Source: Candidatus Nanoarchaeia archaeon (GTDB taxonomy: Archaea > Nanobdellota > Nanobdellia > Woesearchaeales > ARS49). From it: 64,000 nt of DNA. Positions 8,253 through 57,239 of this stretch are shown piece by piece (within the stretch, counting starts at the first letter, position 1; every line of letters begins with the position of its first letter). The position numbers were made by a program, and so were the translations under genes. The notes below the pieces were generated by a model, which was given only the letters and a program-made list of their open reading frames with translations, did not search any database and had not been told where the DNA came from. The stretch spans positions 78,092-142,091 of the forward strand of contig JBGPOY010000003.1 in NCBI GenBank assembly GCA_041488275.1, given 5' to 3'.

Positions 8253-8507
8253 TTATGCCGCGGCCTTCTCGAGGCCGAGCGCCTTTTTGAGCGCGCCCTT
8301 GTCAAAGCCGACAATGATTTGTCCGTCGATGTCAATCACGGGAACGCCCATCTGGCCGGACTTTTCAATCATTTCTTCCGCCTTTTTCTCATCGTTGGCG
8401 ACGTCGACTTCGGTGTATTTGACGTTGTTGAGCTTGAAGAAATCCTTGGCCTGCTTGCAGTACGGGCACGTGGGCGTGCTGTAGATGAGGACCTTGTGTT
8501 CTGACAT
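8253..8507 (-). CDS. Glutaredoxin-like protein (CPYC)
   Basis: 84 aa with VLIYSTPTCPYCKQAK and GVPVIDIDGQIIVGFD. Confidence 0.9.
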   Translation of the reverse strand: MSEHKVLIYSTPTCPYCKQAKDFFKLNNVKYTEVDVANDEKKAEEMIEKSGQMGVPVIDIDGQIIVGFDKGALKKALGLEKAAA

Positions 8508-8552
8508 ATCGCACCTCGTTTTGTGTTTTGAGCGCGCGGGGCTTAATAAATC

Positions 8553-9545
8553 TTACAGTTCTCGGGAACGTTGCCATTGCCGAATCACAATCCACGCGAG
8601 CGTTCCCAGAATGACAAAGCCGAGCAGGAAGCCGAGGAACTGCCCCAGTCCCGAACTCAGAAATCCGCCCGCGGTAAGCGAGTCGTTCGCGATGTAGAAG
8701 AAGTCCATGCTCCACGGAATCAGCCGGGGAACGTAGATTTCGAAGAACGTTGTGCCCTGCCACCAAATCATGATGACGCCGATGAAGATGAGGATGATGG
8801 CGCTTGCGATGTTGTACGTGTGCGTGACGATTTCTTTGCCGAAGAGCTTGAACGTGATGACTTTTCCCTGAATCCATTTCTTGTGGGCGAGGTCGAACTT
8901 GTCGCTCAGCATCGCCACCAGCAGGAGCGGAAGCGAAACGCCGAGGGCGTAAAAGACGAGATACGCGGTGCCCGTCAGAACCGTGCCGGCGTTTGCCGCC
9001 AGCAACAGGATGCCGCCGAGGACCGGTCCGACGCACGGCGTCCAGCCGAGCGCGAAGAAAAATCCGAACAGCGTCATCGTGAACGCGCTCTTGGCTTTGT
9101 GGTGGTCGAGCTTGAACTGGAACCACGTGAAGCCCTTGTTGAGCAATGTCATGATGCCGAACGCGATGAAGATGAATCCGGAAACGACCGCGAACGGTTT
9201 TTTGAACTCGTTGATGAATACGCCGAGAATCGCTGCGCTCAATCCGAGCGTGGTGAACGCGAGTATGAGCCCGGCGCAGAAGAACGCGGTCATCAGCACG
9301 GCGCGCTTGCGTTCTTTGAACAGGAAACTGAAGAAGGTGGGCAGCAGGACAAACCCGCACGGGCTGGTGAAGCTGATGATGCCCGCGATGAACGCGATGA
9401 GGAACGTGATGCTCGCCGCGAGCTGTTCCCGATACTGAAGAATCTTGAGGACGCCGGGCGGAAACTGGGACGGCGCGACGGTCTGCGCTGCAACGATGGG
9501 CAGGGCAAGCAGGAACACCAGGAGCAGAACGCCCGTGAATTTCAT
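8553..9545 (-). CDS. ccdA: CcdA/DsbD-family transmembrane thiol-disulfide electron transporter
   Basis: Two membrane-embedded Cys motifs (FTSPCGFVLLP and GWTPCVGPVLG) in a polytopic protein. The start was trimmed to MKFTGVLLL (signal-like). Confidence 0.85.
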   Translation of the reverse strand: MKFTGVLLLVFLLALPIVAAQTVAPSQFPPGVLKILQYREQLAASITFLIAFIAGIISFTSPCGFVLLPTFFSFLFKERKRAVLMTAFFCAGLILAFTTLGLSAAILGVFINEFKKPFAVVSGFIFIAFGIMTLLNKGFTWFQFKLDHHKAKSAFTMTLFGFFFALGWTPCVGPVLGGILLLAANAGTVLTGTAYLVFYALGVSLPLLLVAMLSDKFDLAHKKWIQGKVITFKLFGKEIVTHTYNIASAIILIFIGVIMIWWQGTTFFEIYVPRLIPWSMDFFYIANDSLTAGGFLSSGLGQFLGFLLGFVILGTLAWIVIRQWQRSREL

Positions 9546-9585
9546 AGCATTACGAATCCTGTAACGGTTTATAAGCTTTATGGAC

Positions 9586-9879
9586 TCACGAAACGAACAA
9601 GAACTTCTTCGCAAGAGAGAGCAATCCCGCAATCGCGTACGCCGTGACCATCGCGGCTTCAACGGGCTGTTCTATCTGGTCCATCAGCGTCGGATAAATG
9701 TTCAGCCATTCCGCCGCAACCATCGCCGCCCAAAAGAATCCTATGACCGAAGCGACGAGAAACACCATCCAGAACAGCGAGAGATCCTTGGTCTTGGCAT
9801 AGTTGCCTCCGGCGACCAATGCAGCAAGCAGGAAGCACGCCGCGCCGATGACGTCCAGCGTCGCAATCAGTCCCGCCAT
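9586..9879 (-). CDS. Hypothetical membrane protein
   Basis: 97 aa with 3 hydrophobic helices. Start/stop is coupled with the upstream gene (shared position 9879). Confidence 0.55.
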   Translation of the reverse strand: MAGLIATLDVIGAACFLLAALVAGGNYAKTKDLSLFWMVFLVASVIGFFWAAMVAAEWLNIYPTLMDQIEQPVEAAMVTAYAIAGLLSLAKKFLFVS

Positions 9880-10250
9880 TATTTGCCGCCCTTCATTGCC
9901 TTGTTTAACTGCGCAAGATGCTCTTCACGCTGATGCTCGGGCACGGCCGCTTCCTGAACGACGGGCTTGCCCAGCGCTTGCAGTTTCAGGAAGTGCATGT
10001 ATGCGCCCAACAGGAACAGCACTCCCGCCAGCGCGACGCCAACAAGGTGCTCCACGAGATTGAATTGGTCGGGATACCAAAAACCTTCCACGACGGTCGC
10101 GATGCCGCCGATGAGCAGTGCAGTGTACGCGAAGAAAAACCAGCGCGTGAATTCCCTGCGGCGCACGGACGCGACTAACGGGACGTATCCGATAAGCAGC
10201 AGCACCAGCACGATGACTTCGTTCGGCTCAAGCGCGCTCATGACATCCAT
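9879..10250 (-). CDS. Hypothetical membrane protein
   Basis: 123 aa with 3-4 TM helices and a charged C-terminal tail. Confidence 0.6.
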   Translation of the reverse strand: MDVMSALEPNEVIVLVLLLIGYVPLVASVRRREFTRWFFFAYTALLIGGIATVVEGFWYPDQFNLVEHLVGVALAGVLFLLGAYMHFLKLQALGKPVVQEAAVPEHQREEHLAQLNKAMKGGK

Positions 10251-10308
10251 TTCCCCTCTGTCGCTTCGCCGTCTTAAATTCTTATATCACTATTAAGAAA
10301 TAGCAACA

Positions 10309-10989
10309 CTACGGCGATTCGAGCCAGTCGAGGATGTCCTGCCCGACGCCGGGCGAGGAATACAGCGCGACGCCGTGCCCGCCGGAAGGATAGACCTTGA
10401 CCGTGACGCGGGGATTCTGTTTCGCGAGCGCGCGGACGCTTTGCGCAGAGTAGACGTCGTCTTCCGCGGCAAGCAACAGCGTCGTGTTCGGCGCGCCGCC
10501 GATGCCTTGCTCGGGCGTGATGCCCCGAAAATCGAGTCCGGGAGAAATCCCGATGAGCGCCGTGACGTTTTTGTCGGTCGCGGCGTAGTTGATGGCTGCG
10601 TTGGCAGTGAAGCTCGCGCCGACGAGCAGAAGGTGCTTGGTGTCCGCCCCTTGAGCCGCGAGAAAGTCTTTTGCGGCGCGGATATCGAGAGGGAGTTTCG
10701 TGAAATCCGCGTCCGTCATGGTTTGCCAGTTGCCGGAGCTCTGTCCGTGCCCGCGCACGTCAATCGCGATGACGCTGTAGCCCGCGTCCTGCAGCTGCGG
10801 CGCGAACGCGTCGTAATCGTGCCGGTCTCGGCGGAACTGGTGCAGAAGTATCGCGCCGGGCGCTCTGCCGGGAGCGGGATAATAGGTGTACGCAATGGAC
10901 GCTCCGTCGGACGCAGTGAGTTTCGGCATGGTCTGAACAGGCGCGCACGCGGCAAGCACAATGAGCAACGCAAGCGCGTACGCACGCAT
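10309..10989 (-). CDS. Alpha/beta-hydrolase lipoprotein candidate
   Basis: MRAYALALLIVLAAC (lipobox-like LAAC), an HGQSSG-region nucleophile-elbow-like GASFTA, and a C-terminal GGHG. The 459-aa ORF was trimmed; Met at 11022 is an alternative start. Confidence 0.75.
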   Translation of the reverse strand: MRAYALALLIVLAACAPVQTMPKLTASDGASIAYTYYPAPGRAPGAILLHQFRRDRHDYDAFAPQLQDAGYSVIAIDVRGHGQSSGNWQTMTDADFTKLPLDIRAAKDFLAAQGADTKHLLLVGASFTANAAINYAATDKNVTALIGISPGLDFRGITPEQGIGGAPNTTLLLAAEDDVYSAQSVRALAKQNPRVTVKVYPSGGHGVALYSSPGVGQDILDWLESP

Positions 10990-11076
10990 ACGCTCGACAA
11001 GCGGGCGCGGGCTTTTAATCATTTCGCGTGCGAAGCTATAAATACGGGGCGGAGCTTCAACCCTCGAGAGGTACTG

Positions 11077-12027
11077 ATGGCATTTGCTCCCGAATTTCAA
11101 GGCGTTGTTGCTTGGCTGAACACCAAGCCGCTCACGCTCAAGCAGCTGGAAGGCAAGGTTGTCGTCGTTGATTTCTGGACGTATTCCTGCGTGAACTGTG
11201 TCCGCACGCTGCCCCATCTTATCGCGACGTACGAGAAGTACGCGAAGTACGGTCTCGTGATTGTCGGCGTGCACACGCCCGAATTCGATTTCGAGAAACA
11301 GATCGAGAACGTCACGGCCGCCGTCAAAAAGTTCAAGATTCCGTATCCCGTCGCGGTCGACAGCAACTGGACCGTGTGGAGCGCGTACGGAAACTCCTAC
11401 TGGCCGCGGCAGTATCTGCTGAACGGCAACGGCGAAATCGTGTGGGACCACATCGGCGAGGGCGGGTACGACGAGATTGAACAGCACATCCGCAAGGAAT
11501 TGGAAAAGCTCGGCGCGAAACTTCCTCCGGTAAACGTGGGCAAGCCCGAACACCGCGCGGGATTCCTCGCGCAGCTGCGCACCACGCGCGAAACGTATCT
11601 GGGCAGCGAGCGCAACGAGGGTTTTGGCTCCGGACGCGTCTGCGTCAAGGAAGGATGCGACCGCCACGTTGACCAAGTGCAGAACCACGACCCGGACGTG
11701 CTGTATCTCGGCGGCGACTGGAAGCAGACCGGCGAATCAGTCGAGCACGACGGCGCGAACGAAGGCCACATTCTCCAGAAATACACCGCAAAGGAAGTCA
11801 ATCTCGTGATGGACTGCGCCAAGAAACCGTGTACTGTCAAGGTGCTGCTGGACGGCAAACCGATTCCGAAGGACATGAAGGGCGATGACGTCGACGCGAA
11901 AGGCATGGTCACGATTGACGGTCCGTGGATGTACCGCCTCGTCAGCGGAAAAGCAACAGAACAGCACGAGCTCAAGCTCGTGACAAAGTCTCCCGGACTG
12001 AAGGCGTTCGCGTTTACGTACGGGTAA
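11077..12027 (+). CDS. Thioredoxin-like (TlpA/redoxin) protein with a C-terminal beta-rich domain (DipZ C-terminal-like)
   Basis: VVVDFWTYSCVNCVRTLPHL (CxxC) and GVHTPEFDFEK, followed by a roughly 150-aa second domain. The start was trimmed to MAFAPEF. A TATA (CTATAAATA) lies about 40 nt upstream. Confidence 0.85.
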   Translation: MAFAPEFQGVVAWLNTKPLTLKQLEGKVVVVDFWTYSCVNCVRTLPHLIATYEKYAKYGLVIVGVHTPEFDFEKQIENVTAAVKKFKIPYPVAVDSNWTVWSAYGNSYWPRQYLLNGNGEIVWDHIGEGGYDEIEQHIRKELEKLGAKLPPVNVGKPEHRAGFLAQLRTTRETYLGSERNEGFGSGRVCVKEGCDRHVDQVQNHDPDVLYLGGDWKQTGESVEHDGANEGHILQKYTAKEVNLVMDCAKKPCTVKVLLDGKPIPKDMKGDDVDAKGMVTIDGPWMYRLVSGKATEQHELKLVTKSPGLKAFAFTYG

Positions 12028-14078: not shown

Positions 14079-14852
14079 TTACTTGAACAGCTTGTTCCAC
14101 AAAGGCACAGACGCATTTGCAATTGCGAGCGCCACGTTGAAGTCGCCGAAATGCACTACTGCCGAAAACAGCGCCACGAGAACTCCTGCCAAAAGACCGT
14201 ACGCCAGCTGGGGAATTCTGCGCAACGGACTGGTTTTGGGCTCGATGACCATGATGGTTGCGAAGAAGAACAGTGCCGAGCTGTTGAGGAATTCCGCCAG
14301 CACGTCTCCGGGGCTGAGCGCGGCGCGGATTCCGAAATACGCGAGCAGGAAAGGAATGACAATCCACCCGCGCCGCATTCTCGTCACGACAAATATGCCG
14401 CCCAGAATAATGACGAGCAAGCCGATGGGGCCGAGCGCGCCGCCGGACACTCCCCACCACGTGGCGTGCGTGCCAAGCAAATACGTTCCAAGAAGGATGC
14501 CGAAGTTCGCGGGGTTGAAGTAATGCTTGCCGTGCCACGCGATGACGACCTTGGACAGAATCGCGATGAGCGCGACAGCGGCGACGAGCCAGAGCGCGGT
14601 TTGATAACTGAGCACCAGTCCGACGATGCTGCCCGTCACGAGCCCGGAACTCGGGAACGCCCAGCCGCCTTTCTGGAAGCGGATAATCAGCAGGTCAACG
14701 ACGCCTGCGACAAGGATGGCGGTAAAGAAAGGAATGAGTGTCGCGGCATAGCCGTACTGCGCGCCTGCAACGAGCGCGTAGACGAGGAACAGCAGTCCCA
14801 TCGGATGGCGGGTGTCGTTCCACCACCACGCAAACAACTCTTTCGGGCTCAT
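14079..14852 (-). CDS. Polytopic membrane protein (RnfD/NqrB-like, tentative)
   Basis: 257 aa with about 8 TM helices. The GKHYFNPANFG motif is reminiscent of the NqrB/RnfD family; this is a weak family call. Confidence 0.7.
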   Translation of the reverse strand: MSPKELFAWWWNDTRHPMGLLFLVYALVAGAQYGYAATLIPFFTAILVAGVVDLLIIRFQKGGWAFPSSGLVTGSIVGLVLSYQTALWLVAAVALIAILSKVVIAWHGKHYFNPANFGILLGTYLLGTHATWWGVSGGALGPIGLLVIILGGIFVVTRMRRGWIVIPFLLAYFGIRAALSPGDVLAEFLNSSALFFFATIMVIEPKTSPLRRIPQLAYGLLAGVLVALFSAVVHFGDFNVALAIANASVPLWNKLFK

Positions 14853-15298
14853 GCCGAGGCGTTGGGAGTTTGTGCTATTTGAACGTTGCTATCGCTCGCG
14901 TTCTCAGCCGGAAGGACCGTGATGTTGCCTTCCATGTCCTGCTGGTACTGGTCGCGGTACTTGTAGAATCCCGGCTTGGTGAAGATGACGCTCCACGTCG
15001 TGCCCGGCTTGAACGCAGGCGAGGGCGCCTCACCCCACATCCAGATGGATTTGATGAACGGCATCTTGTTGTCCCAGCGCACGCGGTCGCCGACGTGAAC
15101 GGTGATGTTTGCAGGCAGGAACATCCAGTCTTTGATGACGATGTCAACGATGCCGCCGTTCACGATGCCTGTTTCGACGGACGTGTCGGGGTTTTCCTGT
15201 GCAGGAGGCGTCGTCTGCGGCGGCTGCGCAGCGGGAGACGTGCACGCTGCGAGCAGCAGCAGCAGCAGACAGGCGAGCAATGCTGTGATCGTTTTCAT
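14849..15298 (-). CDS. Cupredoxin-like lipoprotein candidate (copper ligands not evident)
   Basis: MKTITALLACLLLLLLAACTSP (lipobox). It has the cupredoxin-like pattern ITVHVGDRVRWDN...GFYKYRDQYQQDMEGNITV, but the Cys/His ligand positions are substituted. Confidence 0.75.
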   Translation of the reverse strand: MKTITALLACLLLLLLAACTSPAAQPPQTTPPAQENPDTSVETGIVNGGIVDIVIKDWMFLPANITVHVGDRVRWDNKMPFIKSIWMWGEAPSPAFKPGTTWSVIFTKPGFYKYRDQYQQDMEGNITVLPAENASDSNVQIAQTPNASA

Positions 15299-16027: not shown

Positions 16028-17308
16028 ATGGCATACATTCACGATACGCTCAAGGAAGAACAGACCGCAGGCGCGAGCCCGGCGGACGTGCGCGCGCACG
16101 CCGAGCGCTGGATTCAGCACGCGGCAAACCCGATGACGTACCAGCTGCCGCACGGCTATTGGTCGCCGGGAACCTGGTGGCCGTCCTCCCAAGAAGTGCT
16201 CAGCAATCTCAACGAGATGAAGAAATTTTATGACGCGTTCCGGCCGTTTCTCGGCGAGGCGCCTTCCCTGATTCTGCAGGAAGCCGAAGCTCGTCTGCAC
16301 ACCGAAGCAGGCGCGATGTTTCGGCTCGCGGACATGGATGAACAGGCGCGCATGAAGCTGCCCGCCCACGAGTTTCCTCCGTACTGTTTCGATTTCAACA
16401 ACGCGGTGCACGAGAGCGACGATTGGGAGTCGCTCAAGCTCGTCACGTTTTTGCCGCAGCGCGTGGGCGGCGGCGGGTTCGCGGACATCTACAAAGCGAC
16501 GGGAAAAGACGGAGCGTCACTCGCGCTCAAGCTGTTCCATCTCGACCACCAGCGCTCGCGGGCGGAACGCGCCGACCGCTCGTGGTATCACGAAGTGCAG
16601 TTCATCATCCGCAATGTTTGGGAGCACCGCGAGGTCGTCCAGCAGGAACCGTTCGCAAAGTACCGGTTCGGCAGCAGCAAAGGAGGCTGGTATCTGCGCG
16701 AATTCGCCGAGGGCAAGCCCGTCGAGAGCATGCTCGAAGCGGGCTGCTCGGTGCGCGACAAGGAACTCGCGGGAAAGATTTTGCTGACGTACGCGGGGAT
16801 GCTCAAGTCACTCCACAGCAAGGGGCTTGCGTTCGCGGACAACGGGTGGAGCAACGTCGTCTTCAGCCCCGAACGCGTCACGGTCGTGGATTATGACCTT
16901 GTGTTCCCGTTCGCGCGCATCAACGAAGTGGAGAAGGACGGCGACCGCGTCTATGCGACTCACGTCCCCCGCCGCGCGGCGCACCGGATGTACGCTTCGC
17001 GCGAACAGTTCATCATGGAGGAACCGCTCACGCCGCACAGCGAGCTCGAAAGTTTCGCGCGGATGCTGGACGTGTTCTGCGTCGGCGGCCCGCTGAAGCC
17101 GTTCAAGTGGGATGAGAGCGACGCGCGCCACTCGACGGAGCTGAAAGAACGCGCCCACGCCAACAAGTCTCGATATCCGCCGAACCGCAAAGGACTTCTG
17201 CCCCGACATCTTCGCGACGTCGTGCCGCGGCTCATCACGTATCCGCGCGATGACTCCATCACGATTGATAACATCATCGACGCAATCAAGGCGGATTACA
17301 AAGTCTGA
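16028..17308 (+). CDS. Protein-kinase-like fold protein (divergent catalytic motifs)
   Basis: Gly-rich loop GGGGFADIYKA plus LALKLF (VAIK-like Lys). The catalytic-loop region is LAFADNGWSNVVF and DYD replaces DFG. The start was trimmed to MAYIHD, with the TATA CATATATAC about 30 nt upstream. Confidence 0.7.
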   Translation: MAYIHDTLKEEQTAGASPADVRAHAERWIQHAANPMTYQLPHGYWSPGTWWPSSQEVLSNLNEMKKFYDAFRPFLGEAPSLILQEAEARLHTEAGAMFRLADMDEQARMKLPAHEFPPYCFDFNNAVHESDDWESLKLVTFLPQRVGGGGFADIYKATGKDGASLALKLFHLDHQRSRAERADRSWYHEVQFIIRNVWEHREVVQQEPFAKYRFGSSKGGWYLREFAEGKPVESMLEAGCSVRDKELAGKILLTYAGMLKSLHSKGLAFADNGWSNVVFSPERVTVVDYDLVFPFARINEVEKDGDRVYATHVPRRAAHRMYASREQFIMEEPLTPHSELESFARMLDVFCVGGPLKPFKWDESDARHSTELKERAHANKSRYPPNRKGLLPRHLRDVVPRLITYPRDDSITIDNIIDAIKADYKV

Positions 17309-18069
17309 GCAGGCTGCGCGCGGCGCAGATAGAACCACAACCCTGTGCCGATGGCAATCTGCAGCAGGCTCAGCCATTGCCCGAGTTCCAGCCCCGCGAG
17401 CAGGACTTCCGGCACCTTGAAGAATTCTGAGACGAACCGGAACGCGCCGTAGAGCATCAGGAACAGCGCGAATATGCTTCCCGTGGGGAGCTGCTTCTTG
17501 CGCTGCGAGTACAGTATCGCGAAGAGCAGGATGTTGTAGAAAATTTCGTACAGCTGCACGGGATGGCGCGGCACTTCGTCGACGTGCGCGTAGATGACCG
17601 CCCACGGTCCGTTCCAGGGCGTACCGACGAGTTCTGAATTGAAAAAGTTGCCCAGTCTTCCGAACGCCTGCGCGAGCGTCGCCGGCACGATGAGTACGTC
17701 GCAAAAATGCAGGAACTCGACCTGATGCCGTTTGCACCAGAACCACACCGCGAGGATGACCCCGATGAGCCCGCCGTAAAAGCTCAGTCCTCCCTCCCAA
17801 ATCGCGATGATTTTGAGCGGATTGGCAAAATAATAGGCGGGCTCGTAGAACAGGACTTCGAACAGGCGCGCGCCGAGCACCATGGAGATGACAATCCAGA
17901 CGAACGCCGTGTCAAAGTGGTCAAGTGTGGTCTTGAACCGCCCCGCCTTGATTTCGCGCCGGCAATACCCATACGCAAACAGCACGCCGAGCGCGTAGAG
18001 AATTCCGTACCACCGAATCGTCAGGAGCCCGACCGAAAGCGCAATAGGATTGAGGTTGTTAACGAACAC
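17296..18069 (-). CDS. lgt: Prolipoprotein diacylglyceryl transferase homologue
   Basis: Lgt signatures: IRWYGILYALG, GRLGNFFNSELVGTPW and HPVQLYE. I placed the start at the GTG at 18069; the longest ORF reaches 18138. Confidence 0.85.
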   Translation of the reverse strand: MFVNNLNPIALSVGLLTIRWYGILYALGVLFAYGYCRREIKAGRFKTTLDHFDTAFVWIVISMVLGARLFEVLFYEPAYYFANPLKIIAIWEGGLSFYGGLIGVILAVWFWCKRHQVEFLHFCDVLIVPATLAQAFGRLGNFFNSELVGTPWNGPWAVIYAHVDEVPRHPVQLYEIFYNILLFAILYSQRKKQLPTGSIFALFLMLYGAFRFVSEFFKVPEVLLAGLELGQWLSLLQIAIGTGLWFYLRRAQPAQTL

Positions 18070-18955: not shown

Positions 18956-19450
18956 TTATGACTTGTACTCGATGATGAGCGTGCCTGCCTTGCTGCCGTC
19001 GCGCTCGGTCCACGTGAATTCGCCCTGCGTGAGCGGCGTGAAGTCAATCGTGACGGTGTTGCCTGCGCTGATGACGGTGTTGAGGCTCAGTTCGGAAATG
19101 ATGAACGAGTGGTCTTTGGTGTCGTCGTTGGAAATCGTGAACTTTTCGCGGTCGCCGGGCGTGATGGTCAGAATCGAGGGGTTGTAACCGCTGCGGTCGA
19201 CGCTGAAAACGTAATTGCGCGTGACGCCGGTGGGCTGGATGCCCGGCTGTGAGGCAGGTCCGCCGATGCGTCCGGAAATGCCTTGCGATTCGGGAGCAGG
19301 CGCGGGCGTTTCGGGAGCGGGAGCTCCAACGATAACCTGCTGCTGTCCGGCAGCGGACGACGCAGGAGCGGAAGACGCGGCAGGCGAGGACGGTGACGTG
19401 CACGCGGCAAGCAAAAGCACGGCAAGGATTGCGACAAAGACTCGTTTCAT
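18956..19450 (-). CDS. Lipoprotein candidate with a cupredoxin-like domain (no obvious Cu ligands)
   Basis: MKRVFVAILAVLLLAACTSP (lipobox), a Pro/Ala/Ser linker, then ILTITPGDREKFTISNDD...GEFTWTERDGSKAGTLIIE. Confidence 0.75.
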   Translation of the reverse strand: MKRVFVAILAVLLLAACTSPSSPAASSAPASSAAGQQQVIVGAPAPETPAPAPESQGISGRIGGPASQPGIQPTGVTRNYVFSVDRSGYNPSILTITPGDREKFTISNDDTKDHSFIISELSLNTVISAGNTVTIDFTPLTQGEFTWTERDGSKAGTLIIEYKS

Positions 19451-19824
19451 GGGGTTACCTCTTTGACTTGAACGGCGCCAATCATATCTGAGTGTCCGTC
19501 GCCGCAGAAGACGCTGCAGCGGAACTGGAACAGTCCGACCTTGGTCGCGTCGAACTCGACAATGGATGTGTGCCCGAGCTGCAGCGGGGCGTTGACGTGG
19601 AATTCGGGAATGCTGATGCCGTGCATCACGTCCGCGCTGGTGATGTGCAGTTTGACGTGATCGCCTTTGTTGACCGTGATGAGCGCGGGCTCGAACGCGA
19701 ACTGCTTCGCAGTCATGTCAAATTCCTTCAGCGGACCCTGCACGAACGGCTCGCTCGGAGCGGCGGAAGACGCGCAGCCGGTCAGGAACAGCGCAAGAAC
19801 CGCCACCGGAATCACCCATCGCAT
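19447..19824 (-). CDS. Cupredoxin-domain lipoprotein candidate with a CuA/type-1-like ligand set
   Basis: MRWVIPVAVLALFLTGCASS (lipobox), VMHGISIPEF and FRCSVFCGDGHSDM (C-x3-C-x3-H-x2-M, as in CoxB-type sites). The start was trimmed to Met15, with a TATA about 25 nt upstream. Confidence 0.8.
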   Translation of the reverse strand: MRWVIPVAVLALFLTGCASSAAPSEPFVQGPLKEFDMTAKQFAFEPALITVNKGDHVKLHITSADVMHGISIPEFHVNAPLQLGHTSIVEFDATKVGLFQFRCSVFCGDGHSDMIGAVQVKEVTP

Positions 19825-19911
19825 ACGTGCACTGCTGAGGTCGCGGTATAAAAAACTTGTGAACACAAAAATTTTTATATCACCTGCGCTCTTAAGGAAA
19901 CGGTGACTTCA

Positions 19912-20079
19912 ATGACTGACGGTAAAATCAAGTTCTGGTGTTCGAGCTGCAAGTACAAGTTTCAGCGCAAGGCAAAGCCGAATATGTGCCCGTATTGCAG
20001 CAAGCCGACCGTTGAAGATGACCGTTCGCGCGGCGCAGAAGATTTGCTCCGTGAAGTGAGCGAGATTGGGCGCGAGTAG
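19912..20079 (+). CDS. Small zinc-ribbon protein (55 aa)
   Basis: MTDGKIKFWCSSCKYKF...CPYCSKPT (CxxC-x13-CxxC). TATA ATTTTTATAT lies about 35 nt upstream. It is below the ORF-track length cut-off. Confidence 0.6.
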   Translation: MTDGKIKFWCSSCKYKFQRKAKPNMCPYCSKPTVEDDRSRGAEDLLREVSEIGRE

Positions 20080-20082
20080 CGC

Positions 20083-20466
20083 CTAAATCGCGTCAATAAC
20101 TTTTCTCAGGCGTTTTTCAACGCTTGCGGTGATTGCGTCGAGCTCGTCGTTGCTCAGCAATCCGGCGATTTTGGTGGGTTCCTGCACGGCGACGATGATG
20201 TTCTTTTCCTCTCGGTAAACGGCGAGGTTGAACGGCTGGAACAGCCCTGCGGTTCGGTCGAGGTGCAGCATTTCGTGCGTGACGCGCGGGTCGCACACGC
20301 CCAAGAGCAGGTACTCGGGATGGTCCTGATGGATTTTCTGCTTCAGCAGTTTTGAGAGGTCGGTTTCGGTGATGATGGCGAAGCCGCCCGCGGACAGCTC
20401 CTCGCGGACTTTCTTGACCGCATCAACAAAGGAAAGTTTGACCGAGCGCCGGATGCCATAGACCAT
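20083..20466 (-). CDS. DUF302-domain protein
   Basis: 127 aa: SFVDAVKKVREELSAGGFAIITETDLSKLLK...LLGVCDP fits the DUF302 pattern. The 283-aa ORF was trimmed. Confidence 0.8.
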   Translation of the reverse strand: MVYGIRRSVKLSFVDAVKKVREELSAGGFAIITETDLSKLLKQKIHQDHPEYLLLGVCDPRVTHEMLHLDRTAGLFQPFNLAVYREEKNIIVAVQEPTKIAGLLSNDELDAITASVEKRLRKVIDAI

Positions 20467-20471
20467 GGTGC

Positions 20472-21689
20472 TCACGCCGTCCCGCTTGCGGGCGCGGCGG
20501 TGGAAAGGATTTTGCCGTTGGTCAGGTTCTTGTAGTTCACGCCTTGCAGCAGGTTGACCTTGCGGAAGACGTACGCGCCGTCCTTCTCGACCGTGCCGAC
20601 GCTCGGCCACACGGCGACGAGCGCGGGATACGTCGCGGGGTCGCCGGTCACGATAATCGTCGGAACGAGCGAGAGGTTGTACTGCGCGAGCAGGTTCTTG
20701 CCTTCGGGCGAGCTGACATCGACTACTCGGTCGGTGGAGAACTGCGCTCCGAAATTGGACAGGAAGATTTCTTTGTGAATGCTCGCGTTGTAGCACGTCG
20801 TGCACGAGGCGTCCGTGAGTTCGAGCAGATTGAGCAGTCCGCGGACCTTGCCTGACGTGAGGTCGTAGTATGGCGGCTCGACTTGGCGCAGGACATAGCT
20901 TCCGTCGGGCGCGACGTCGCCGACTTGGTCCCATTGCCCCGCGATGAAGTCGTAGTCTTTCGCTGCAGGGCTCAGCACGACCGCGGGAAGTTTGGTGATG
21001 GAGTACGCGTTAATCAGGCGTTTGCCCTCTTCGCTGGATGCGGAAAACGATTTTTCAGACGTCAGCGCGACGCCTGACTGTTTCAGCTGGTCACCGAGCG
21101 TGCTGAGGTTGCTGCACTGCGGGCAGAGGGCGGGATCTGCGGTGACTTCCTCCAGCGAGAGGAGTCCGCCGACGCTGCCGGACTTGACGTCATAGAACGG
21201 CGCGGGCGATTCAAGCGAGAGCGCGTCGCCGATTTTGAAGAATCCCTGGAGCTGGACTTTGTCGACATCACCCTGCACGATGATGACGGGCAGGCGCGAG
21301 ACGTTGTAATCGTTCATCAATTTCTTGGAGTGCGGGTCGCTCATCGCGAGCGTGAGCGAATCAACGGCGTACTCTTTGCTGGCTGCAAGTTGTTTTGCGA
21401 CGGCCGCGAGGTCGTAGCATTCCTTGCAGTCGGCGGTGATGAGCGTCATCTTGATGCTGGGCTTTACGGGAGTCGCGGAGGCGGGTCCGGCAAGCAATTT
21501 CTGGACGCCGAGGATTTGGACGGCGTTGACAATCAGCACGACGCCGATGAGCACGGCGAGAATCAGGTGGATGGGCGCAAAGGTTTTCTTGGGCGCGTGG
21601 TGAACGGCGTGATGCACCGGATGGGCGGGGTGCAGCGCGTGGTGAGGTTCCTGGTGTTCTGCAGCATGTTCCGGTTTTTTGTCTTCCAC
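20472..21689 (-). CDS. Membrane-anchored protein with three tandem thioredoxin-like CxxC repeats and a His-rich cytoplasmic tail
   Basis: N-terminus EHAAEHQEPHHALHPAHPVHHAVHHAPKK, one TM helix, then three roughly 105-aa repeats with CKEC, CPQC and CTTC. Confidence 0.85.
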   Translation of the reverse strand: MEDKKPEHAAEHQEPHHALHPAHPVHHAVHHAPKKTFAPIHLILAVLIGVVLIVNAVQILGVQKLLAGPASATPVKPSIKMTLITADCKECYDLAAVAKQLAASKEYAVDSLTLAMSDPHSKKLMNDYNVSRLPVIIVQGDVDKVQLQGFFKIGDALSLESPAPFYDVKSGSVGGLLSLEEVTADPALCPQCSNLSTLGDQLKQSGVALTSEKSFSASSEEGKRLINAYSITKLPAVVLSPAAKDYDFIAGQWDQVGDVAPDGSYVLRQVEPPYYDLTSGKVRGLLNLLELTDASCTTCYNASIHKEIFLSNFGAQFSTDRVVDVSSPEGKNLLAQYNLSLVPTIIVTGDPATYPALVAVWPSVGTVEKDGAYVFRKVNLLQGVNYKNLTNGKILSTAAPASGTA

Positions 21690-21702: not shown

Positions 21703-22134
21703 TTATAATGAGCAGCCGGTCAATGCGGACAGGCGCTCAAGCGATTGGACGTCCTCATACATCTCCCCGTCAATCACCCACGTCGGGGTTTTCTTGATGG
21801 GCTCGGGCGAGTCGCGATAGTCGCGGTAATCAAGATATTTGAATGACTTGCCGAACATGCCCGCCTGTTCCTGCGTGAAGTGGCACCACTCGATGGCGCC
21901 GTACATGATGGCGTTGTGGTCGTGCAGGCATTGGGCGAACGCGTCGTACTTGCCGGGAAGCGCGAACGCGACGCCGACAATGAGCAAGACGAGCAGAAGA
22001 GCTCCGCCGACGGAGAAATAAACGAACCGCTTGCGCTTCGACTGCGACTGCTGCTTTTCCTGAAGCGCAACATCACGTTCCTGATTGCGCTGCTCCTGCT
22101 TCAGCCGGAGCTTTTCGTGCCGGTCAACGTTCAT
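21703..22134 (-). CDS. Membrane-anchored thioredoxin-like domain protein (VKOR-associated Trx type) with a degenerate CxxC (CHFT)
   Basis: One TM helix, then FAQCL..MYGAIEWCHFTQEQAGMFG...TPTWVIDG...LTGC. Confidence 0.75.
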   Translation of the reverse strand: MNVDRHEKLRLKQEQRNQERDVALQEKQQSQSKRKRFVYFSVGGALLLVLLIVGVAFALPGKYDAFAQCLHDHNAIMYGAIEWCHFTQEQAGMFGKSFKYLDYRDYRDSPEPIKKTPTWVIDGEMYEDVQSLERLSALTGCSL

Positions 22135-22150
22135 AGTTCATCACGCTGGC

Positions 22151-22345
22151 TTAGAGTCCGGTCGTGACGGGCGTTGCCGCGTCCGAGCACGGGTCTTCGA
22201 TGGCGTGCGCGGGAGCGCCGACGCCGCAGCCGCCGCCGACGGGTCCTGACGGAGGCGTGTACGATGCCTGACCGGTCGCGCAGCCGGCAACAAAGAGCAG
22301 ACCGATGATGGTCAGCGCGAGAATCGCGATGGTTGTTGCTTTCAT
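22151..22345 (-). CDS. Small lipoprotein candidate
   Basis: MKATTIAILALTIIGLLFVAGCATG (lipobox VAGC). 64 aa, Gly/Pro-rich, with 2 further Cys. Confidence 0.55.
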   Translation of the reverse strand: MKATTIAILALTIIGLLFVAGCATGQASYTPPSGPVGGGCGVGAPAHAIEDPCSDAATPVTTGL

Positions 22346-22366: not shown

Positions 22367-22570
22367 TTAACAGCCGCCCACCATATTGGGCAGGTTCTGC
22401 AGGCTTGCCGGCACGCTGCCGCCGCCTGCGCTCGGAGCCGCTCCGCCCGCTGCAACGGCAACGCCGCCCGTGGCGAGCTTCTCCTTAATCGTGTTGACTT
22501 GGAACGCCTGCACCACGCTCAGGAGGAGCAGGATGCCCAGCACGATCGCGATAATCAGGTTCTTGTTCAT
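22367..22570 (-). CDS. Small type-II membrane protein ending in LPNMVGGC
   Basis: MNKNLIIAIVLGILLLLSVVQAFQV...LQNLPNMVGGC*. It is paralogous to the N- and C-termini of the upstream gene product. The 90-aa ORF was trimmed. Confidence 0.6.
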   Translation of the reverse strand: MNKNLIIAIVLGILLLLSVVQAFQVNTIKEKLATGGVAVAAGGAAPSAGGGSVPASLQNLPNMVGGC

Positions 22571-22571
22571 G

Positions 22572-23435
22572 TTAGCATCCTCCGACCATATCGGGCAGGC
22601 TTCCGATGTCCGCCGTCTTGCCCGACTGCAGTTTTGCAAGCAGTTGGGCGTCGTTCAGTTTCGCAGGGTCGAGGTCGAGCCCGTTTTGCACGAGCGCGAC
22701 GCCCTTTTGAACCATGTTCTTGGGATAAAAGAGCGACTTCCAGCGCGTGAGGTCCCAGTAAATCTGGTCGTCAGTCCACGTGGTGGGGTGCGTCTTGATA
22801 ATGTACTTGGTGAGCCCGCGGAACGCCGCGGAGTGGGCGCAACCGCACAAGTCGCGGCCTTGGTTGTCCGTGACGGCAGGTGCGCTGCAGCAGAACTCGC
22901 AGGAAATTTTGGTCGTGATGCCGACGTAGCGCTTAAACTCGTCGGGGGTAAGCGTCTTGGTTGGGATGGCTTGGTCGAGTCGCGCAAGCGTTTGGAGACC
23001 GGGGACGGGGTTGTCGAACGAGACGCCGAGCTCCTTGCCATAATCCTTCGGTGTTCCGGTCGGAATGAGCGCCTTGATGACGCTGTTGACGACGTCGCCC
23101 GATGCATCGAGCTTGATGGTACCCGAGGTTTGGCCTGCGGTCGGTCCCGAAGGCGCGAGCGCGCTGCCGCCCGAGACGAGCAGCCCCGAGACTTGCGTAA
23201 TCTGGAATTGGTTGAAGAGAATCATCAAAGAAACGAGCGCGATAAGCAGGAACGAGAGTTTTTCGCCGGCGCTTACGGGTGTGTGCGCGTCGTGAGGCGC
23301 GTGCACTTCGTGAGATGCAGGGTGCGCAACCGGAACCGCGAGAGGTTTTGATTCGACCTTGGGTTCCGCTTTGACTGCCTTTTCTTTTTTTGGTTCTGCC
23401 ACAGGATGCTCCTGCGCTCCCCCGATTTTCACCAT
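22572..23435 (-). CDS. Membrane-anchored Cys-motif protein (CxxCC...CGCxH) with a His-rich tail, ending in LPDMVGGC
   Basis: His-rich N-terminus (HPASHEVHAPHDAHTP), one TM helix, the motif KISCEFCCSAPAVTDNQGRDLCGCAHS, and the C-terminus GSLPDMVGGC*. A TATA lies about 25 nt upstream of the ATG. Confidence 0.8.
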   Translation of the reverse strand: MVKIGGAQEHPVAEPKKEKAVKAEPKVESKPLAVPVAHPASHEVHAPHDAHTPVSAGEKLSFLLIALVSLMILFNQFQITQVSGLLVSGGSALAPSGPTAGQTSGTIKLDASGDVVNSVIKALIPTGTPKDYGKELGVSFDNPVPGLQTLARLDQAIPTKTLTPDEFKRYVGITTKISCEFCCSAPAVTDNQGRDLCGCAHSAAFRGLTKYIIKTHPTTWTDDQIYWDLTRWKSLFYPKNMVQKGVALVQNGLDLDPAKLNDAQLLAKLQSGKTADIGSLPDMVGGC

Positions 23436-23492: not shown

Positions 23493-23509
23493 GTTACATC
23501 TAGCGTAAC
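23493..23509. promoter_or_regulatory. Inverted repeat GTTAC-N7-GTAAC (candidate BlaI-family operator)
   Basis: Read directly from the sequence. It lies in the divergent promoter region between 23435 (-) and 23586 (+). Confidence 0.45.
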
Positions 23510-23537: not shown

Positions 23538-23554
23538 TTTACAAGATGCGTAAA
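23538..23554. promoter_or_regulatory. Inverted repeat TTTAC-N7-GTAAA (candidate BlaI-family operator) abutting the TATA box CTATTTATAG (23555-23564)
   Basis: It has the same TTAC-N7-GTAA architecture as 23493-23509. The TATA lies about 25 nt upstream of the blaI-like ATG. Confidence 0.45.
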
Positions 23555-23585: not shown

Positions 23586-23942
23586 ATGAAAGAAGTGATG
23601 GGGCGGTTTGATGAACTGCTGAGCCCGCTCGAAGCCGACGTTCTTCGCGTCCTCTGGCCCGACAAAAAAATGAAAGTGCGCCAGATGTACGACCTGCTGA
23701 AGCACAAGCGCAAGGTCGCGCTCAGCTCCGTGGCCGTGATTCTCGACCGATTGCACGCGCGCGGAATTGTCAACCGCACCGTCGAGACCGCGCGAGGAGG
23801 AATGCGCTACACGTACTTCCCGCGGCAGGACAAAAAACAGTTCGAACAAAACGTTGTCGAAACCGCCGTCAACAAACTGATTGACGCGTTCGGTCCGACC
23901 GCGGTCAGTTATTTCAACGAGCGCTTTGGGAGGAAGAAGTGA
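23586..23942 (+). CDS. BlaI/MecI/CopY-family winged-helix repressor
   Basis: LSPLEADVLRVLW...VALSSVAVILDRLHARGIVNR...YTYFP. There is no C-terminal CopY-type Cys motif. Confidence 0.9.
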   Translation: MKEVMGRFDELLSPLEADVLRVLWPDKKMKVRQMYDLLKHKRKVALSSVAVILDRLHARGIVNRTVETARGGMRYTYFPRQDKKQFEQNVVETAVNKLIDAFGPTAVSYFNERFGRKK

Positions 23943-24691
23943 GCATTCTCCAAGTGATGCTGCTGACCCTCCTCAATCCGACGTATCTGACGATTTCCGC
24001 CGGCGCGGTGTTGCTTGCGCTGCTCGTGCTTGCCGCCTCGAGAAACGCGCAACTCACGGTTGCCGCCCGCGTGTTTCTGATTTACGTCCACATCGCATTG
24101 CTGCTCGTGCCGATTGCCGCGTTATCGTACACGAGCGGATGCGCGTTGCCCGGCGTGCAGTGTACGACGCGCACGTTATTGTTTGCGCTGCCGCTCATCC
24201 TCGCGGGCATCATCACGACGACGGGCGTTGCGGGTTATTATTTACTCCCGCGTCTCTACCGCAGAAAGCTCGGCGCCCGACCGATGCACGACGCGCGCAT
24301 GCAGACGATGGTTGACCGCGTTGCGAAGAAATTCGGCATTCTCCCTCCTGCGATGTTCGCGCTCGACACCGCGGCGCCGATGGCGTTCAGCTTCTCATCG
24401 TTCAAGCCCGCGATTTTCGTCTCGATTGGCATGCTGGACATTCTCTCGCGCAAGGAACTCGAAGCGGTTGTTTTGCACGAACTCGGACATCTCTGCCAGC
24501 GTTCTTCACTGTTGAAGTTCACGAGCCAGTTGGTGCGCTTTGTCAGCCCCGTCGCGGCGTTCGCGACACGCCCGCACGACATCGACGCGGAAGAACGCGC
24601 GGCTGACGCGTTCGCGATACGCCTGCAGAAAACGTCCTTGCACGTGGGCCGTGCGCGCAGGAACGTCGAAGCATTCTTTCAATCAGCATGA
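23939..24691 (+). CDS. BlaR1-like M56-family membrane metalloprotease (no extracellular sensor domain)
   Basis: About 4 TM helices and the HExxH motif VLHELGHL. Overlaps the repressor gene by 4 nt. Confidence 0.85.
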   Translation: MSILQVMLLTLLNPTYLTISAGAVLLALLVLAASRNAQLTVAARVFLIYVHIALLLVPIAALSYTSGCALPGVQCTTRTLLFALPLILAGIITTTGVAGYYLLPRLYRRKLGARPMHDARMQTMVDRVAKKFGILPPAMFALDTAAPMAFSFSSFKPAIFVSIGMLDILSRKELEAVVLHELGHLCQRSSLLKFTSQLVRFVSPVAAFATRPHDIDAEERAADAFAIRLQKTSLHVGRARRNVEAFFQSA

Positions 24692-25077
24692 AAAGGGACG
24701 CGATTCTCGGGAGCGTCGGCGGAGTTTCCGGCGCGGCAAGCATTATCAGTTCTGCGCAGACGTGCAACACGATTTGTGTCAGCGGGTTTAGCACGCTCTC
24801 GGTCGCGGGAACAGCGATGGCGGGGCTTCCGCTTGTGTTCAGTTATCTCGCGCTGCCCGCGTGGTGGCTCGGTGTTGGACTGTTCGCGCTTCTTGCCGGA
24901 CTGTTCGTCTTCGAGAAAGGTGTTAAACCCGCATTCCTGCTGTTGAACGGCGGCATTTTGCTGGCGGGAACGCCGTTTCTCGCTGTGCACGGCAATCTCG
25001 TATTCTTTTGGATTGCAGGCGGACTGCTCGCAGTCGCGGGAGCGGGCATGCTGCTCTGGGCGCGGTTCGCGCGCTAG
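24688..25077 (+). CDS. Hypothetical membrane protein (CxxxC near the N-terminus)
   Basis: 129 aa with SAQTCNTICVSG followed by 3 TM helices. Has an ATGA overlap with the M56 gene. Confidence 0.65.
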   Translation: MKRDAILGSVGGVSGAASIISSAQTCNTICVSGFSTLSVAGTAMAGLPLVFSYLALPAWWLGVGLFALLAGLFVFEKGVKPAFLLLNGGILLAGTPFLAVHGNLVFFWIAGGLLAVAGAGMLLWARFAR

Positions 25078-57207: not shown

Positions 57208-57239
57208 TTTATATAAGGGAATACTTACAGAGTAGGTAA
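57208..57239 (+). promoter_or_regulatory. TATA box TTTATATAA (57208-57216) followed by the imperfect inverted repeat ATACTTAC-AGA-GTAGGTAA (57221-57239)
   Basis: The repeat sits between the TATA box and the expected transcription start, which is a classical repressor position in archaea. Confidence 0.5.

Follow-up and report, generated by a model that had tools for sequence, protein, structure and literature searches.

A shared C-terminal MVGGC tail links a cysteine-knuckle membrane protein to a small membrane-anchored partner in DPANN archaea and CPR bacteria

Atx1 or CopZ and the HMA domains of P1B ATPases have a common short Cys motif and pass Cu(I) by thiolate exchange, and their genes are often found near those of copper ATPases. 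In mer systems, which also include a MerP/MerT relay, the flexible C-terminal Cys-Cys arm of MerA takes a thiophilic metal to buried active-site cysteines. In the CcdA/DsbD to TlpA to ScoI/CoxB systems with PcuC, and in ScsABCD, an electron transporter keeps the Cys ligands of copper proteins reduced via anchored thioredoxin (Trx)-like proteins. Swinging-arm cysteines are found in DsrC/TusE, in the GCUG end of thioredoxin reductase, in the CGC tail of Erv2 and in the R1 tail of ribonucleotide reductase. To our knowledge, none of the proteins in this last group has an arm-only paralogue. Here we describe two adjacent genes, one large and one small, whose membrane-anchored products end in the same pentapeptide, MVGGC. 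They lie in a stretch of 64,000 nucleotides (nt), called the window below, from a Candidatus Nanoarchaeia archaeon of the Woesearchaeales (GenBank assembly GCA_041488275.1, contig JBGPOY010000003.1, positions 78,092 to 142,091 of the forward strand). Coordinates are those of the window unless another locus is named.

The large MVGGC protein has 287 amino acids (aa) and is encoded by an open reading frame (ORF) at 22572–23435 on the minus strand, for which the first homology search gave 90 homologues. The small MVGGC protein, with 67 aa, an ATG start and 17 close homologues, is encoded at 22367–22570 (−). The large protein ends ...DIGSLPDMVGGC, the last eight residues being LPDMVGGC (22575–22598, −), and the TAA stop follows at 22572–22574. 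The small protein ends ...LQNLPNMVGGC, with the tail LPNMVGGC at 22370–22393 (−), and is likewise followed by TAA. A single nucleotide separates the stop codon of the large gene from the ATG of the small one. The JGI annotation of the source metagenome contig, made independently, also lists both ORFs, the 67-aa one included. Between the large and the small gene, the MVGGC codons show synonymous differences at four of five positions (GTC/GTG, GGA/GGC, GGA/GGC, TGC/TGT). Thus, the identity of the tails is held at the protein level and does not reflect a recent DNA copy. An earlier note on this DNA had described two adjacent membrane proteins with a common LP(N/D)MVGGC end. Both ORFs are indeed there, and the motif is kept in the orthologues.

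Two sets of loci were compared. The first comprises 81 loci, that is, 80 fetched relatives and the window (1.06 Mb in all), and the second comprises 80 loci with no overlap with the first, so that the two together make 161. Among 9030 stop-to-stop segments of at least 50 aa in the first set, 167 end in VGGC and 11 in the runner-up terminal 4-mer. This 15-fold difference excludes chance as the source of the shared ending. Recoding of the stop codon, as selenocysteine or as Gly past the Cys, was considered and rejected, since TAA terminates both window genes and the loci as a whole make use of all three stop codons. In the window, the Val-Gly-Gly codons of the large-gene tail (22571–22590, −) read GTCGGAGGA, which places a Shine-Dalgarno-like GGAGGA 8 nt before the ATG of the small gene. 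This is no general rule, as GGAGG within the tail codons is carried by only 29 of 77 large genes and 25 of 89 small genes.

The large protein begins with a predicted cytoplasmic N-terminus rich in Lys, Glu and His, followed by one transmembrane (TM) helix, a linker, an all-helical ectodomain with a Cys5-His knuckle, a second linker and LPDMVGGC. The translated His-rich stretch, HPASHEVHAPHDAH, occupies residues 38–51 (23283–23324, −) on the predicted cytoplasmic side. The large protein had been credited with a His-rich tail; the histidines are real, and they are N-terminal. At least five His in the first 70 residues are found in only 23 of 225 family members, that is, the His-rich N-terminus is lineage-specific. 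The TM anchor, LSFLLIALVSLMILFNQFQI, extends from residue 60 to 79 (23199–23258, −), carries a near-invariant Asn75 and falls within a helix from 56 to 87 in the AlphaFold2 (AF2) model. A post-TM segment common to both proteins had also been suggested. What is common is a short aromatic-Gln-aliphatic motif, while the remainder is low-complexity linker. The motif is found as Q[AS][FVY][QE][LIV] in 58 of 84 small proteins; its strict form in large proteins, N[QS][FYW]Q[ILVM], is met in only 38 of 225.

The knuckle lies in a dense Cys motif, SCEFCCSAPAVTDNQGRDLCGCAHS (residues 178–202), to which the earlier note had drawn attention and whose Cys, His and Glu prove invariant in a 28-sequence alignment of homologues. 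The knuckle itself, CEFCCSAPAVTDNQGRDLCGCAH, extends from residue 179 to 201 (22833–22901, −). Its five Cys and its His are invariant in alignments A1, A3 and A6. Glu180 is invariant in A1 and A6, but a few divergent members have Gln or Arg instead. The consensus across the family is C-E-[FY]-C-C...C-G-C-x-H. The AF2 model of the window protein has a mean predicted local distance difference test (pLDDT) score of 80.7, with values above 90 across residues ~110–270, and that of a short-linker homologue has a mean of 86.6. In both models the ectodomain is all-helical and holds a small Cys knuckle with beta-bridges, located at 179/185/189/195 in the window model. The tail is modelled as coil, with a pLDDT of 81 at the last residues of the window protein and of 88–90 over the last 19 residues of the short-linker homologue. 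Such confident placement of the predicted tail is consistent with a defined docking site.

No described family was found that contains either protein. The large protein has no Pfam match (E ≤ 0.1) and no NCBIfam match, and the small protein is likewise without a match in Pfam or NCBIfam. A sequence-profile search of the PDB with the large family gave no relative, and Foldseek searches of the PDB with both AF2 models gave none either (best E 1.6–2.1, TM-score ≤ 0.2). Full-text literature searches returned nothing relevant on the MVGGC motif or the Cys knuckle, on PCYCGC proteins, on cupredoxins in DPANN archaea or on BlaR1 and copper in archaea. That the motif was unfamiliar from the literature had been remarked before, and it appears to be undescribed in Pfam, NCBIfam and the literature alike. 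Since no described family or solved structure matches, we rate the large/small pair as new at the level of family and motif, with a probable logic that resembles known thiol-based relays.

The first homology search found 90 relatives of the large protein, nearly all ending in MVGGC, in Woese-, Aenigm-, Micr-, Nano- and Diapherotrites archaea and in Paceibacterota. An exhaustive profile search of 1.84 billion cluster representatives (E ≤ 1e-3) gave only 339 matches, which makes the family small and phyletically restricted. It is confined to DPANN archaea and to bacteria of the candidate phyla radiation (CPR; Patescibacteria), and relatives are encoded in 365 species genomes of the GTDB representative set. 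Residues invariant in the 28-sequence alignment are C179, E180, C182, C183, G193, C197, C199, H201, W232, K233, P238 and V284-G285-G286-C287. In A3, a divergent-tail alignment of the 16 most divergent large members, every sequence retains the Cys and His residues of the knuckle as well as the terminal Cys and Gly(-3), and the tail loosens to [MQWF]-x-G-x-C. Of 365 non-redundant sequences that contain the core, 294 have Cys as their final residue, the other 71 being truncated or not ending in Cys. Among the 294 full-length relatives, 236 end in MVGGC and 22 in QVGGC. The position just before the terminal Cys accepts Asp or Glu, as in WVGDC, MVGEC and QQGEC. The LP before the tail is missing in many lineages, which end ...SGGMVGGC.

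The bacterial members come with the same operon. In CPR loci (L046, L049, L062, L066, L069, L073, L141, L146, L158 and others), proteins 35–40% identical to the archaeal ones are encoded together with BlaI, a longer BlaR1-like protein of ~340–350 aa, a Trx-repeat protein and CcdA, in the order BlaI, BlaR1-like, large, small, Trx-repeat, CcdA. The same operon at this level of identity implies inter-domain transfer. The titles of several metagenome-assembled genomes in the sample (Gammaproteobacteria, Methanosarcinales, Binatia, Udaeobacter) look like those of mislabelled bins.

The small protein consists of a TM anchor (residues 5–21, nt 22508–22558), a QAFQV juxtamembrane motif, a Gly/Ala/Ser linker and the tail. 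ORFs with anchor, linker and MVGGC number 169 and are found in 145 of the 161 loci; one to three stand beside the large gene, nearly always directly downstream. They span several archaeal and bacterial phyla, and all keep the anchor and the tail. The earlier proposal that the small protein resembles the large one minus its core is thus borne out by a conserved ORF. Lack of conservation in orthologues, of either the motif or the small ORF, had been named as the observation that would speak against the note, and on checking both are clearly conserved. In the first set, 75 of the 77 large genes ending in VGGC have a small tail ORF on the same strand that ends within 1.3 kb downstream, and pairing behaves alike in the second set. 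The median distance from the large-gene stop to the small-gene ATG is 18.5 nt across loci.

Cores and tails go together even where the large protein departs from the rule. The five cores without a terminal Cys all adjoin a small tail protein, and the three WVGDC-ending large proteins in the fetched loci are all without a small partner. It follows that every core has at least one arm, as tail-less cores have a small partner and partnerless WVGDC proteins keep their own tail. Partners also agree in residue -5, which is Met in both proteins of 77 pairs and Gln in both of five in the first set, with no mixed pair; the second set has a few mixed ones. An acidic residue after the CC of the core pairs with an acidic residue at -2 of the tail in 7 of 12 cases against 6 of 282, a co-variation that comes from only two or so clades. 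Just before the tail, 32 of the 169 small proteins (~19%) carry a conserved Met/His-rich insert, WTxxEKMxYEMHG or ETYExMMxRMHPDQ, and the former is also found in the linker of some large proteins.

How do these proteins compare with the described systems? As in Atx1/CopZ–HMA pairs, two partners carry one common Cys motif. Those pairs share the whole ferredoxin-like HMA fold with MxCxxC, whereas the large and small proteins share only a five-residue tail with one Cys, have no HMA match, are placed extracytoplasmically and include one partner without a folded domain. As in mer systems, the same operon encodes membrane proteins with Cys pairs in TM helices. Unlike MerA, a flavoprotein of the cytoplasm with a tail that works across subunits of a single enzyme, the large/small system has an arm that is also a separate gene, and no flavoprotein or mer gene is present here. 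The likeness to CuA-assembly systems consists of CuA-type cupredoxins as clients, Met/His-rich extensions such as those of chaperones, and CcdA with anchored Trx-like proteins. Unlike the proteins of these systems, neither the large nor the small protein has a Sco, PCuAC or DsbA/G-like match, and the predicted fold is all-helical with no relative in the PDB. More generally, the large protein matched no family profile or fold of the known copper chaperones looked for (HMA/CopZ, Sco, PCuAC, CopC, CusF). With DsrC/TusE, thioredoxin reductase, Erv2 and ribonucleotide reductase it shares a conserved Cys at or near the C-terminus on a flexible arm; the arms of those proteins belong to a folded protein, and there is no similarity in sequence or fold.

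A loose resemblance of the Cys motif to PCYCGC-type proteins had also been suggested. PCYCGC proteins (PF13798) are indeed small, exported or anchored, with a C-x-C-G-C-type cluster and a nearby His, but the Cys spacing differs and they lack the MVGGC tail. The large protein has no PF13798 match, and an hhalign comparison (A1 versus A2) gave a probability of 0.7% with only the last 20 columns aligned. Genuine PCYCGC proteins are encoded by separate genes in four of the same islands, one of them scoring E 8e-13 in the same Pfam test. The suggested resemblance is thus not upheld.

Neighbouring genes were grouped by clustering all ORFs of the 81 loci (c numbers below; locus counts in this part refer to this set unless stated otherwise). 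The recurring order is a divergent pair of BlaI-like and BlaR1-like genes, the large gene, the small gene or genes, sometimes a WCxxT Trx-like gene, a triple-CxxC Trx-repeat gene, CcdA and Cys-bearing membrane proteins. In the window, a BlaI/CopY-family winged-helix repressor of 118 aa with no Cys is encoded at 23586–23942 (+) (Penicillinase_R PF03965, E 6e-15; CopY_TcrY, E 1e-8, below cutoff). Beside it, at 23939–24691 (+), is a BlaR1-like M48/M56 membrane metalloprotease (Peptidase_M48 PF01435, E 4.6e-8, above cutoff; M56 PF05569, E 1.2e-5, below cutoff). The two match the BlaI/BlaR1 type, in which a Penicillinase_R repressor is found next to an M48/M56 membrane protease with HExxH. The BlaI-like cluster (c4) is found in 44 of the 81 loci and the BlaR1-like one in 47. 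The HExxH residues H174, E175 and H178 are kept in 42 of 42 BlaR1-like sequences, and a Cys pair in the outer loop, C62/C69 (SGC-ALPGVQ-C; codons 24140–24142 and 24161–24163), is kept in 41 and 36 of the 42, respectively.

The regulatory arrangement is that of BlaI/BlaR1 (MecI/MecR1): a Penicillinase_R repressor, a membrane M48/M56 zinc protease and, as putative operators, TTAC...GTAA-type palindromes in the divergent promoter. Unlike BlaR1, the window protease has the conserved extracytoplasmic Cys pair instead of a penicillin-binding sensor domain; no such domain was found on the BlaR1-like protein, which is 244–250 aa long and ends after the protease domain. The Cys pair is a candidate thiol or metal sensing element for the BlaI-type switch. 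Unlike CopY, the window repressor lacks a CxCx4CxC copper site. A pattern search placed two TTAC-N7-GTAA palindromes, putative BlaI-type operators, at 23494–23508 and 23539–23553 in the divergent promoter region. The window contains four such palindromes against 0.09 expected; 80 loci contain 81 against 22 in a shuffle, at least 43 of them within 200 nt upstream of the large gene. The third palindrome of the window (9550–9564) lies just upstream of the CcdA gene (8553–9545), and the fourth (57225–57239) lies 46 nt upstream of a 193-aa ORF (57271–57852) with two HTH-like "...HEIA.LL.RDDRTIWT..." repeats. The scattered sites suggest a small regulon.

The genes downstream of the pair point to thiol chemistry. 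A TM-anchored protein of 143 aa (21703–22134, −; cluster c8) has W-C-x-x-T, a TPTW loop of the cis-Pro type and a C69/C141 pair. This cluster is found in 20 loci with C69, C84, P117 and C141 conserved, and its motifs, in a protein without a Pfam match, suggest a Trx-like fold. It is followed by a 405-aa protein (20472–21689, −) with a His-rich N-terminus, a TM segment and three Trx-like repeats (CKEC, CPQC, CTTC; Thioredoxin_3, E 1.2e-5). The Trx-repeat cluster (c1) occurs in 56 of the 81 loci, and in 22 of 30 loci with full flanks, and its three CxxC pairs are conserved. The same-strand run closes, 6 nt past the Trx-repeat gene, with a gene for a DUF302 protein (20083–20466, −; PF03625, E 3.3e-13). 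A CcdA/DsbD-type thiol-electron transporter with an N-terminal signal is encoded at 8553–9545 (−; cluster c2). The representative of the cluster matches DsbD_TM (PF02683, E 7e-17), and CcdA is found in 49 of the 81 loci and in 18 of 30 with full flanks. Next to the regulators, at 24688–25077 (+), is a polytopic membrane protein of 129 aa (c10) that carries C-x3-C in the first of its hydrophobic segments and also has a GMPL motif. This cluster, found in 16 loci, keeps C26 and C30 in 17 of 17 sequences and has no Pfam or NCBIfam match.

Copper-related genes are also present. Two cupredoxin lipoproteins are encoded at 18956–19450 and 19447–19866, both on the minus strand (18956–19866 together; COX2, E 1e-8, and Cupredoxin_1), and the latter has a complete CuA-type ligand set, DVMHG...CSVFCGDGHSDM. 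The CuA motif CxxxCGxGHxxM is found in 22 loci including the window, in proteins of ~125–140 aa; no gene for a haem-copper oxidase or for N2O reductase came to notice in the inspected part of the window. P1B ATPases occur in the flanks of 35 of 160 loci, about 22% (27 with CPC and six with CPH), together with an HMBD domain, and CPR loci contain an HMA-DsbD_2-cupredoxin fusion. Some members have His-rich or Cys-rich cytoplasmic N-termini, which in the window holds for both the 287-aa and the 405-aa protein. That of the 405-aa protein is EHAAEHQEPHHALHPAHPVHHAVHHAP (21540–21689, −) and, like that of the 287-aa protein, is seen in this lineage only; both may bind metal in the cytoplasm. A GMxCxxC pattern match in the window was rejected as an off-frame artefact, and no HMA protein is claimed from it.

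The core and the tails are likely to face the outside of the membrane. In natural fusions the core is preceded by a cleavable signal peptide and an FKBP domain, or by a lipobox, FKBP being the sole informative fused domain in long members. As the operon partners also include membrane-anchored Trx-like proteins and lipoprotein cupredoxins, an outer-face location is suggested by these sequences.

We propose, with a probability of roughly 0.4, that the thiolate of the terminal Cys works as a swinging arm, docking at the Cys/His knuckle in cis from the large protein and in trans from the small one and handing over Cu(I). The Gly-Gly would let the terminal thiolate enter a narrow pocket at the knuckle. 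The own arm of the large protein would dock there in cis, and the small protein would be a free-standing arm for the same pocket in trans, the cargo passing by thiolate ligand exchange. Cu(I) is the most likely cargo because of the genomic context. The small arm would capture it at the membrane surface, aided in ~19% of small proteins by the Met/His-rich inserts, and hand it to the knuckle, where it would be sequestered or from which it would be delivered to the cupredoxins. Keeping the exposed thiols in reduced form would fall to CcdA and the Trx-repeat protein. The BlaR1-like protein would detect the same thiophilic stress through its Cys loop and remove the BlaI-like repressor, turning the operon on. 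A more tentative extension, which we consider possible but less likely than not, is that the small protein is a gene-encoded separate arm, a ribosomally made carrier with a membrane tether, one Cys and no folded domain. It would insert its terminal Gly-Gly-Cys into the Cys5-His pocket of its novel-fold partner and serve as a protein-borne cofactor for extracytoplasmic transfer of Cu(I) or electrons. The whole module would then be a system for metal and thiol homeostasis in the envelope that was invented in, and exchanged between, ultra-small DPANN and CPR organisms, where it replaces chaperones of the Sco, PCuAC or CopZ type.

Several observations weigh against Cu(I) hand-over. Docking of the tail is predicted from pLDDT values and from co-variation, and the co-variation counts come from few independent clades. 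Some lineages have Gln, Trp or Phe in place of Met(-5), so this Met is no obligatory Cu ligand. The window has no copper ATPase or HMA gene, and only about 22% of loci have an ATPase within their flanks. CcdA, the Trx-repeat protein, the fusion to an exported FKBP and the fusion of a core to a CPVC membrane domain would fit a pure thiol-disulfide role equally well. Moreover, the sequences all come from metagenome bins.

A metal-free thiol-disulfide relay is therefore the main rival and nearly as plausible as the Cu(I) reading, that is, possible. The ectodomain would be a new extracytoplasmic oxidoreductase or folding catalyst with redox-active knuckle cysteines, the terminal Cys would act as resolving or shuttle Cys, and the small protein would be a one-Cys shuttle between the CcdA-fed Trx-repeat protein and the knuckle. 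Terminal-Cys arms of a comparable kind are those of thioredoxin reductase, Erv2, MsrA and ribonucleotide reductase. The commonest operon partners, Trx-repeat (56/81) and CcdA (49/81), speak for such a relay, as do the monothiol WCxxT Trx-like protein, the fusion with an exported FKBP prolyl isomerase, the fusion of a tail-less paralogue to a CPVC membrane domain, the extracytoplasmic Cys pair of the BlaR1-like sensor and the dispensability of Met(-5). Yet a relay of this kind has no role for the Met/His-rich inserts in 19% of small proteins. It also leaves unexplained the His/Cys-rich cytoplasmic N-termini and the enrichment of CuA cupredoxins, copper ATPases and HMA fusions. The ectodomain, moreover, has no thioredoxin fold (the AF2 model is all-helical, and no Trx family matches) and no flavin or quinone site as an electron sink. 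The earlier note had offered a metal ligand or a redox hand-off Cys as alternatives. Both remain viable and the context favours both, with copper slightly ahead.

A regulatory role for the small protein is improbable. Its tail, or that of the large protein, would report the state of the system to the Cys loop of the BlaR1-like protein by a mixed disulfide or a shared metal site, feeding back on BlaI cleavage. Such a ligand would suit a BlaR1-like protein that lacks a sensor domain yet keeps two extracytoplasmic Cys, and putative operators precede the large gene. Where a locus includes enough flanking DNA, the two regulators directly adjoin the large/small pair in about 60% of cases, but in many loci no BlaI/BlaR1 is found within 2.5 kb of the pair. 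Neither the invariant Cys5-His knuckle of the large protein with its identical tail nor the constant small partner of tail-less cores is explained in this way.

The tail might also be a C-terminal signal for processing, lipidation or attachment that anchors or cross-links the C-terminus to lipid or envelope, a reading that the earlier note had entertained and that we hold to be very improbable. V-G-G-C does resemble the lipobox consensus [LVI][ASTVIG][GAS]C, and LP-x-M-V-G loosely recalls LPXTG. An Lgt homologue (PF01790, E 8e-60) lies 4.7 kb away in the window, and the family is found in 13 of the 81 loci; Lgt is accounted for by the adjacent cupredoxins with an N-terminal lipobox. The Cys of the tail is itself the C-terminal residue, behind a hydrophilic linker, with Asp or Glu beside it in several lineages and no TM helix or basic tail after it, and a cut before it of the signal peptidase II type would discard the whole protein. 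Acceptance of an acidic neighbour and a Cys that nothing follows both argue against a sorting or lipid signal. As for sortase, the LP is often missing and no sortase-like or other transpeptidase-like gene is found among the conserved neighbours. CaaX modification takes three residues after the Cys, and Cys is last in both window proteins. Signals of the archaeosortase, exosortase and rhombosortase types (PGF-CTERM, PEP-CTERM, GlyGly-CTERM, CGP-CTERM) were looked for, and neither a C-terminal TM segment with a basic cluster nor an NCBIfam model match was found. On this point the note had it right, as both proteins stop with TAA immediately after the Cys and no TM segment follows.

A general tag would be expected on a varied set of proteins. 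The DNA pattern P-x-M-V-G-G-C-TAA was scanned across 185,579 species genomes, and of the 153 matches listed, 62 end large-family ORFs and 76 end small anchor-plus-tail ORFs (138 together). The remaining listed ones are mostly cut or frameshifted copies, with about nine short or non-coding chance matches in unrelated bacteria. No third family bears the tail among the matches listed, and none does in the 1.06 Mb of flanks. The restriction of the tail to two families among the matches listed, rather than a varied cargo set, argues against a sortase-, exosortase- or lipobox-type signal, and an attachment role is disfavoured on this ground as well as by the acidic residues tolerated beside the Cys.

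A sulfane-sulfur carrier is highly improbable. The terminal Cys would travel as a persulfide (Cys-SSH) on an arm like that of DsrC/TusE, to or from the knuckle. Flexible C-terminal arms with a single Cys are typical of sulfur relays such as DsrC/TusE, and the DUF302 gene closes the window operon. The conserved neighbours include no rhodanese, TusA, DsrE, Sqr or Hdr-like genes, however; the metal-related context is left unexplained, and no DsrC likeness was found by Pfam or fold search. Lastly, that the small ORF is a pseudo-duplicate or the shared ending a coincidence, for which only its small size and low-complexity linker speak, is already refuted by the conservation data: 169 intact ORFs in 145 of 161 loci that always keep anchor and tail, synonymously diverged codons, a small gene a median of 18.5 nt behind the large one, and a VGGC ending 15-fold above any other terminal 4-mer.

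A large part of microbial diversity belongs to DPANN archaea and CPR bacteria, whose envelope biology is mostly obscure. The module described here is sharply defined, with a novel fold bearing an invariant Cys5-His centre, a new and strictly C-terminal pentapeptide, an arm-only partner, and an identifiable regulator, putative operator and supply of reductant. If the swinging-arm model is true, it adds a design principle to metal and redox trafficking, namely, the arm as its own gene, and shows how organisms that lack the classical chaperones for copper load or detoxify this metal outside the cell. Occurrence in two domains of life points to a gene set likely passed between episymbiotic archaea and bacteria in common habitats. 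Whatever the cargo, the family merits a name and an entry in Pfam/NCBIfam.

Some further features of the window touch on the same subjects. Immediately downstream of the small gene, at 22151–22345 (−), a 64-aa ORF with a lipobox (LFVAGC) is present in the JGI call and belongs to a cluster (c27) of five closely related loci only. Its internal ...SGPVGGGCGVGA... (PVGGGC) echoes the MVGGC tail, and it may be a degenerate third arm turned lipoprotein. Another lipobox cupredoxin is encoded at 14849–15298. The Lgt gene itself (17296–17883, −) is a case of Lgt in an archaeal genome near bacterial-type lipobox proteins; its match begins at profile position 57, and the true start may lie upstream. A 58-aa ORF with a CxxC...CxxC zinc ribbon (19903–20079, +) adjoins the DUF302 gene on the opposite strand. 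A second thiol-redox set is found at 8253–12027, with glutaredoxin (8253–8507), the CcdA gene (8553–9545) and AhpC/TSA plus Thioredoxin_10 (DipZ-C-like; 11077–12027).

Other families recur in the islands. Cluster c6 (L006 1142–1792 and 26 other loci) is an anchored protein of ~216 aa with DGxCDxCGMPxxxC. Clusters c9, c10, c12 and c26 are small polytopic membrane proteins with HCPLC, CHNxC, CCAHH or GCLSCG in TM segments. Pfam and NCBIfam searches with clusters c6, c9, c10, c11, c12, c15, c26 and c62 gave nothing informative, and the same holds for the tail-less paralogues, the Met/His-rich modules and the HHPD modules described next.

Paralogous cores without the MVGGC tail, with CDYCC...CGCAH or CC...CQCGHH, are encoded at L045 2088–3326, L053 16372–16641 and L079 5769–6317. 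Those of L045 and L053 are followed by a small MVGGC gene of their own, and one tail-less core is fused to a polytopic membrane domain with CPVC. A small TM-anchored module with the motif C...GY[ST][DE]xxW..HM.HHPD[RQ]Y..CL and no Pfam match is a separate gene in many islands (L078 13799–14026, L079 9332–9556, L080 10020–10265, L041 11531–11833, L055 7713–8393 and others). This HHPD module is also found fused into the linker of a tail-less large protein (P0071 of L055) and, in L036 and L037, to an exported FKBP domain.

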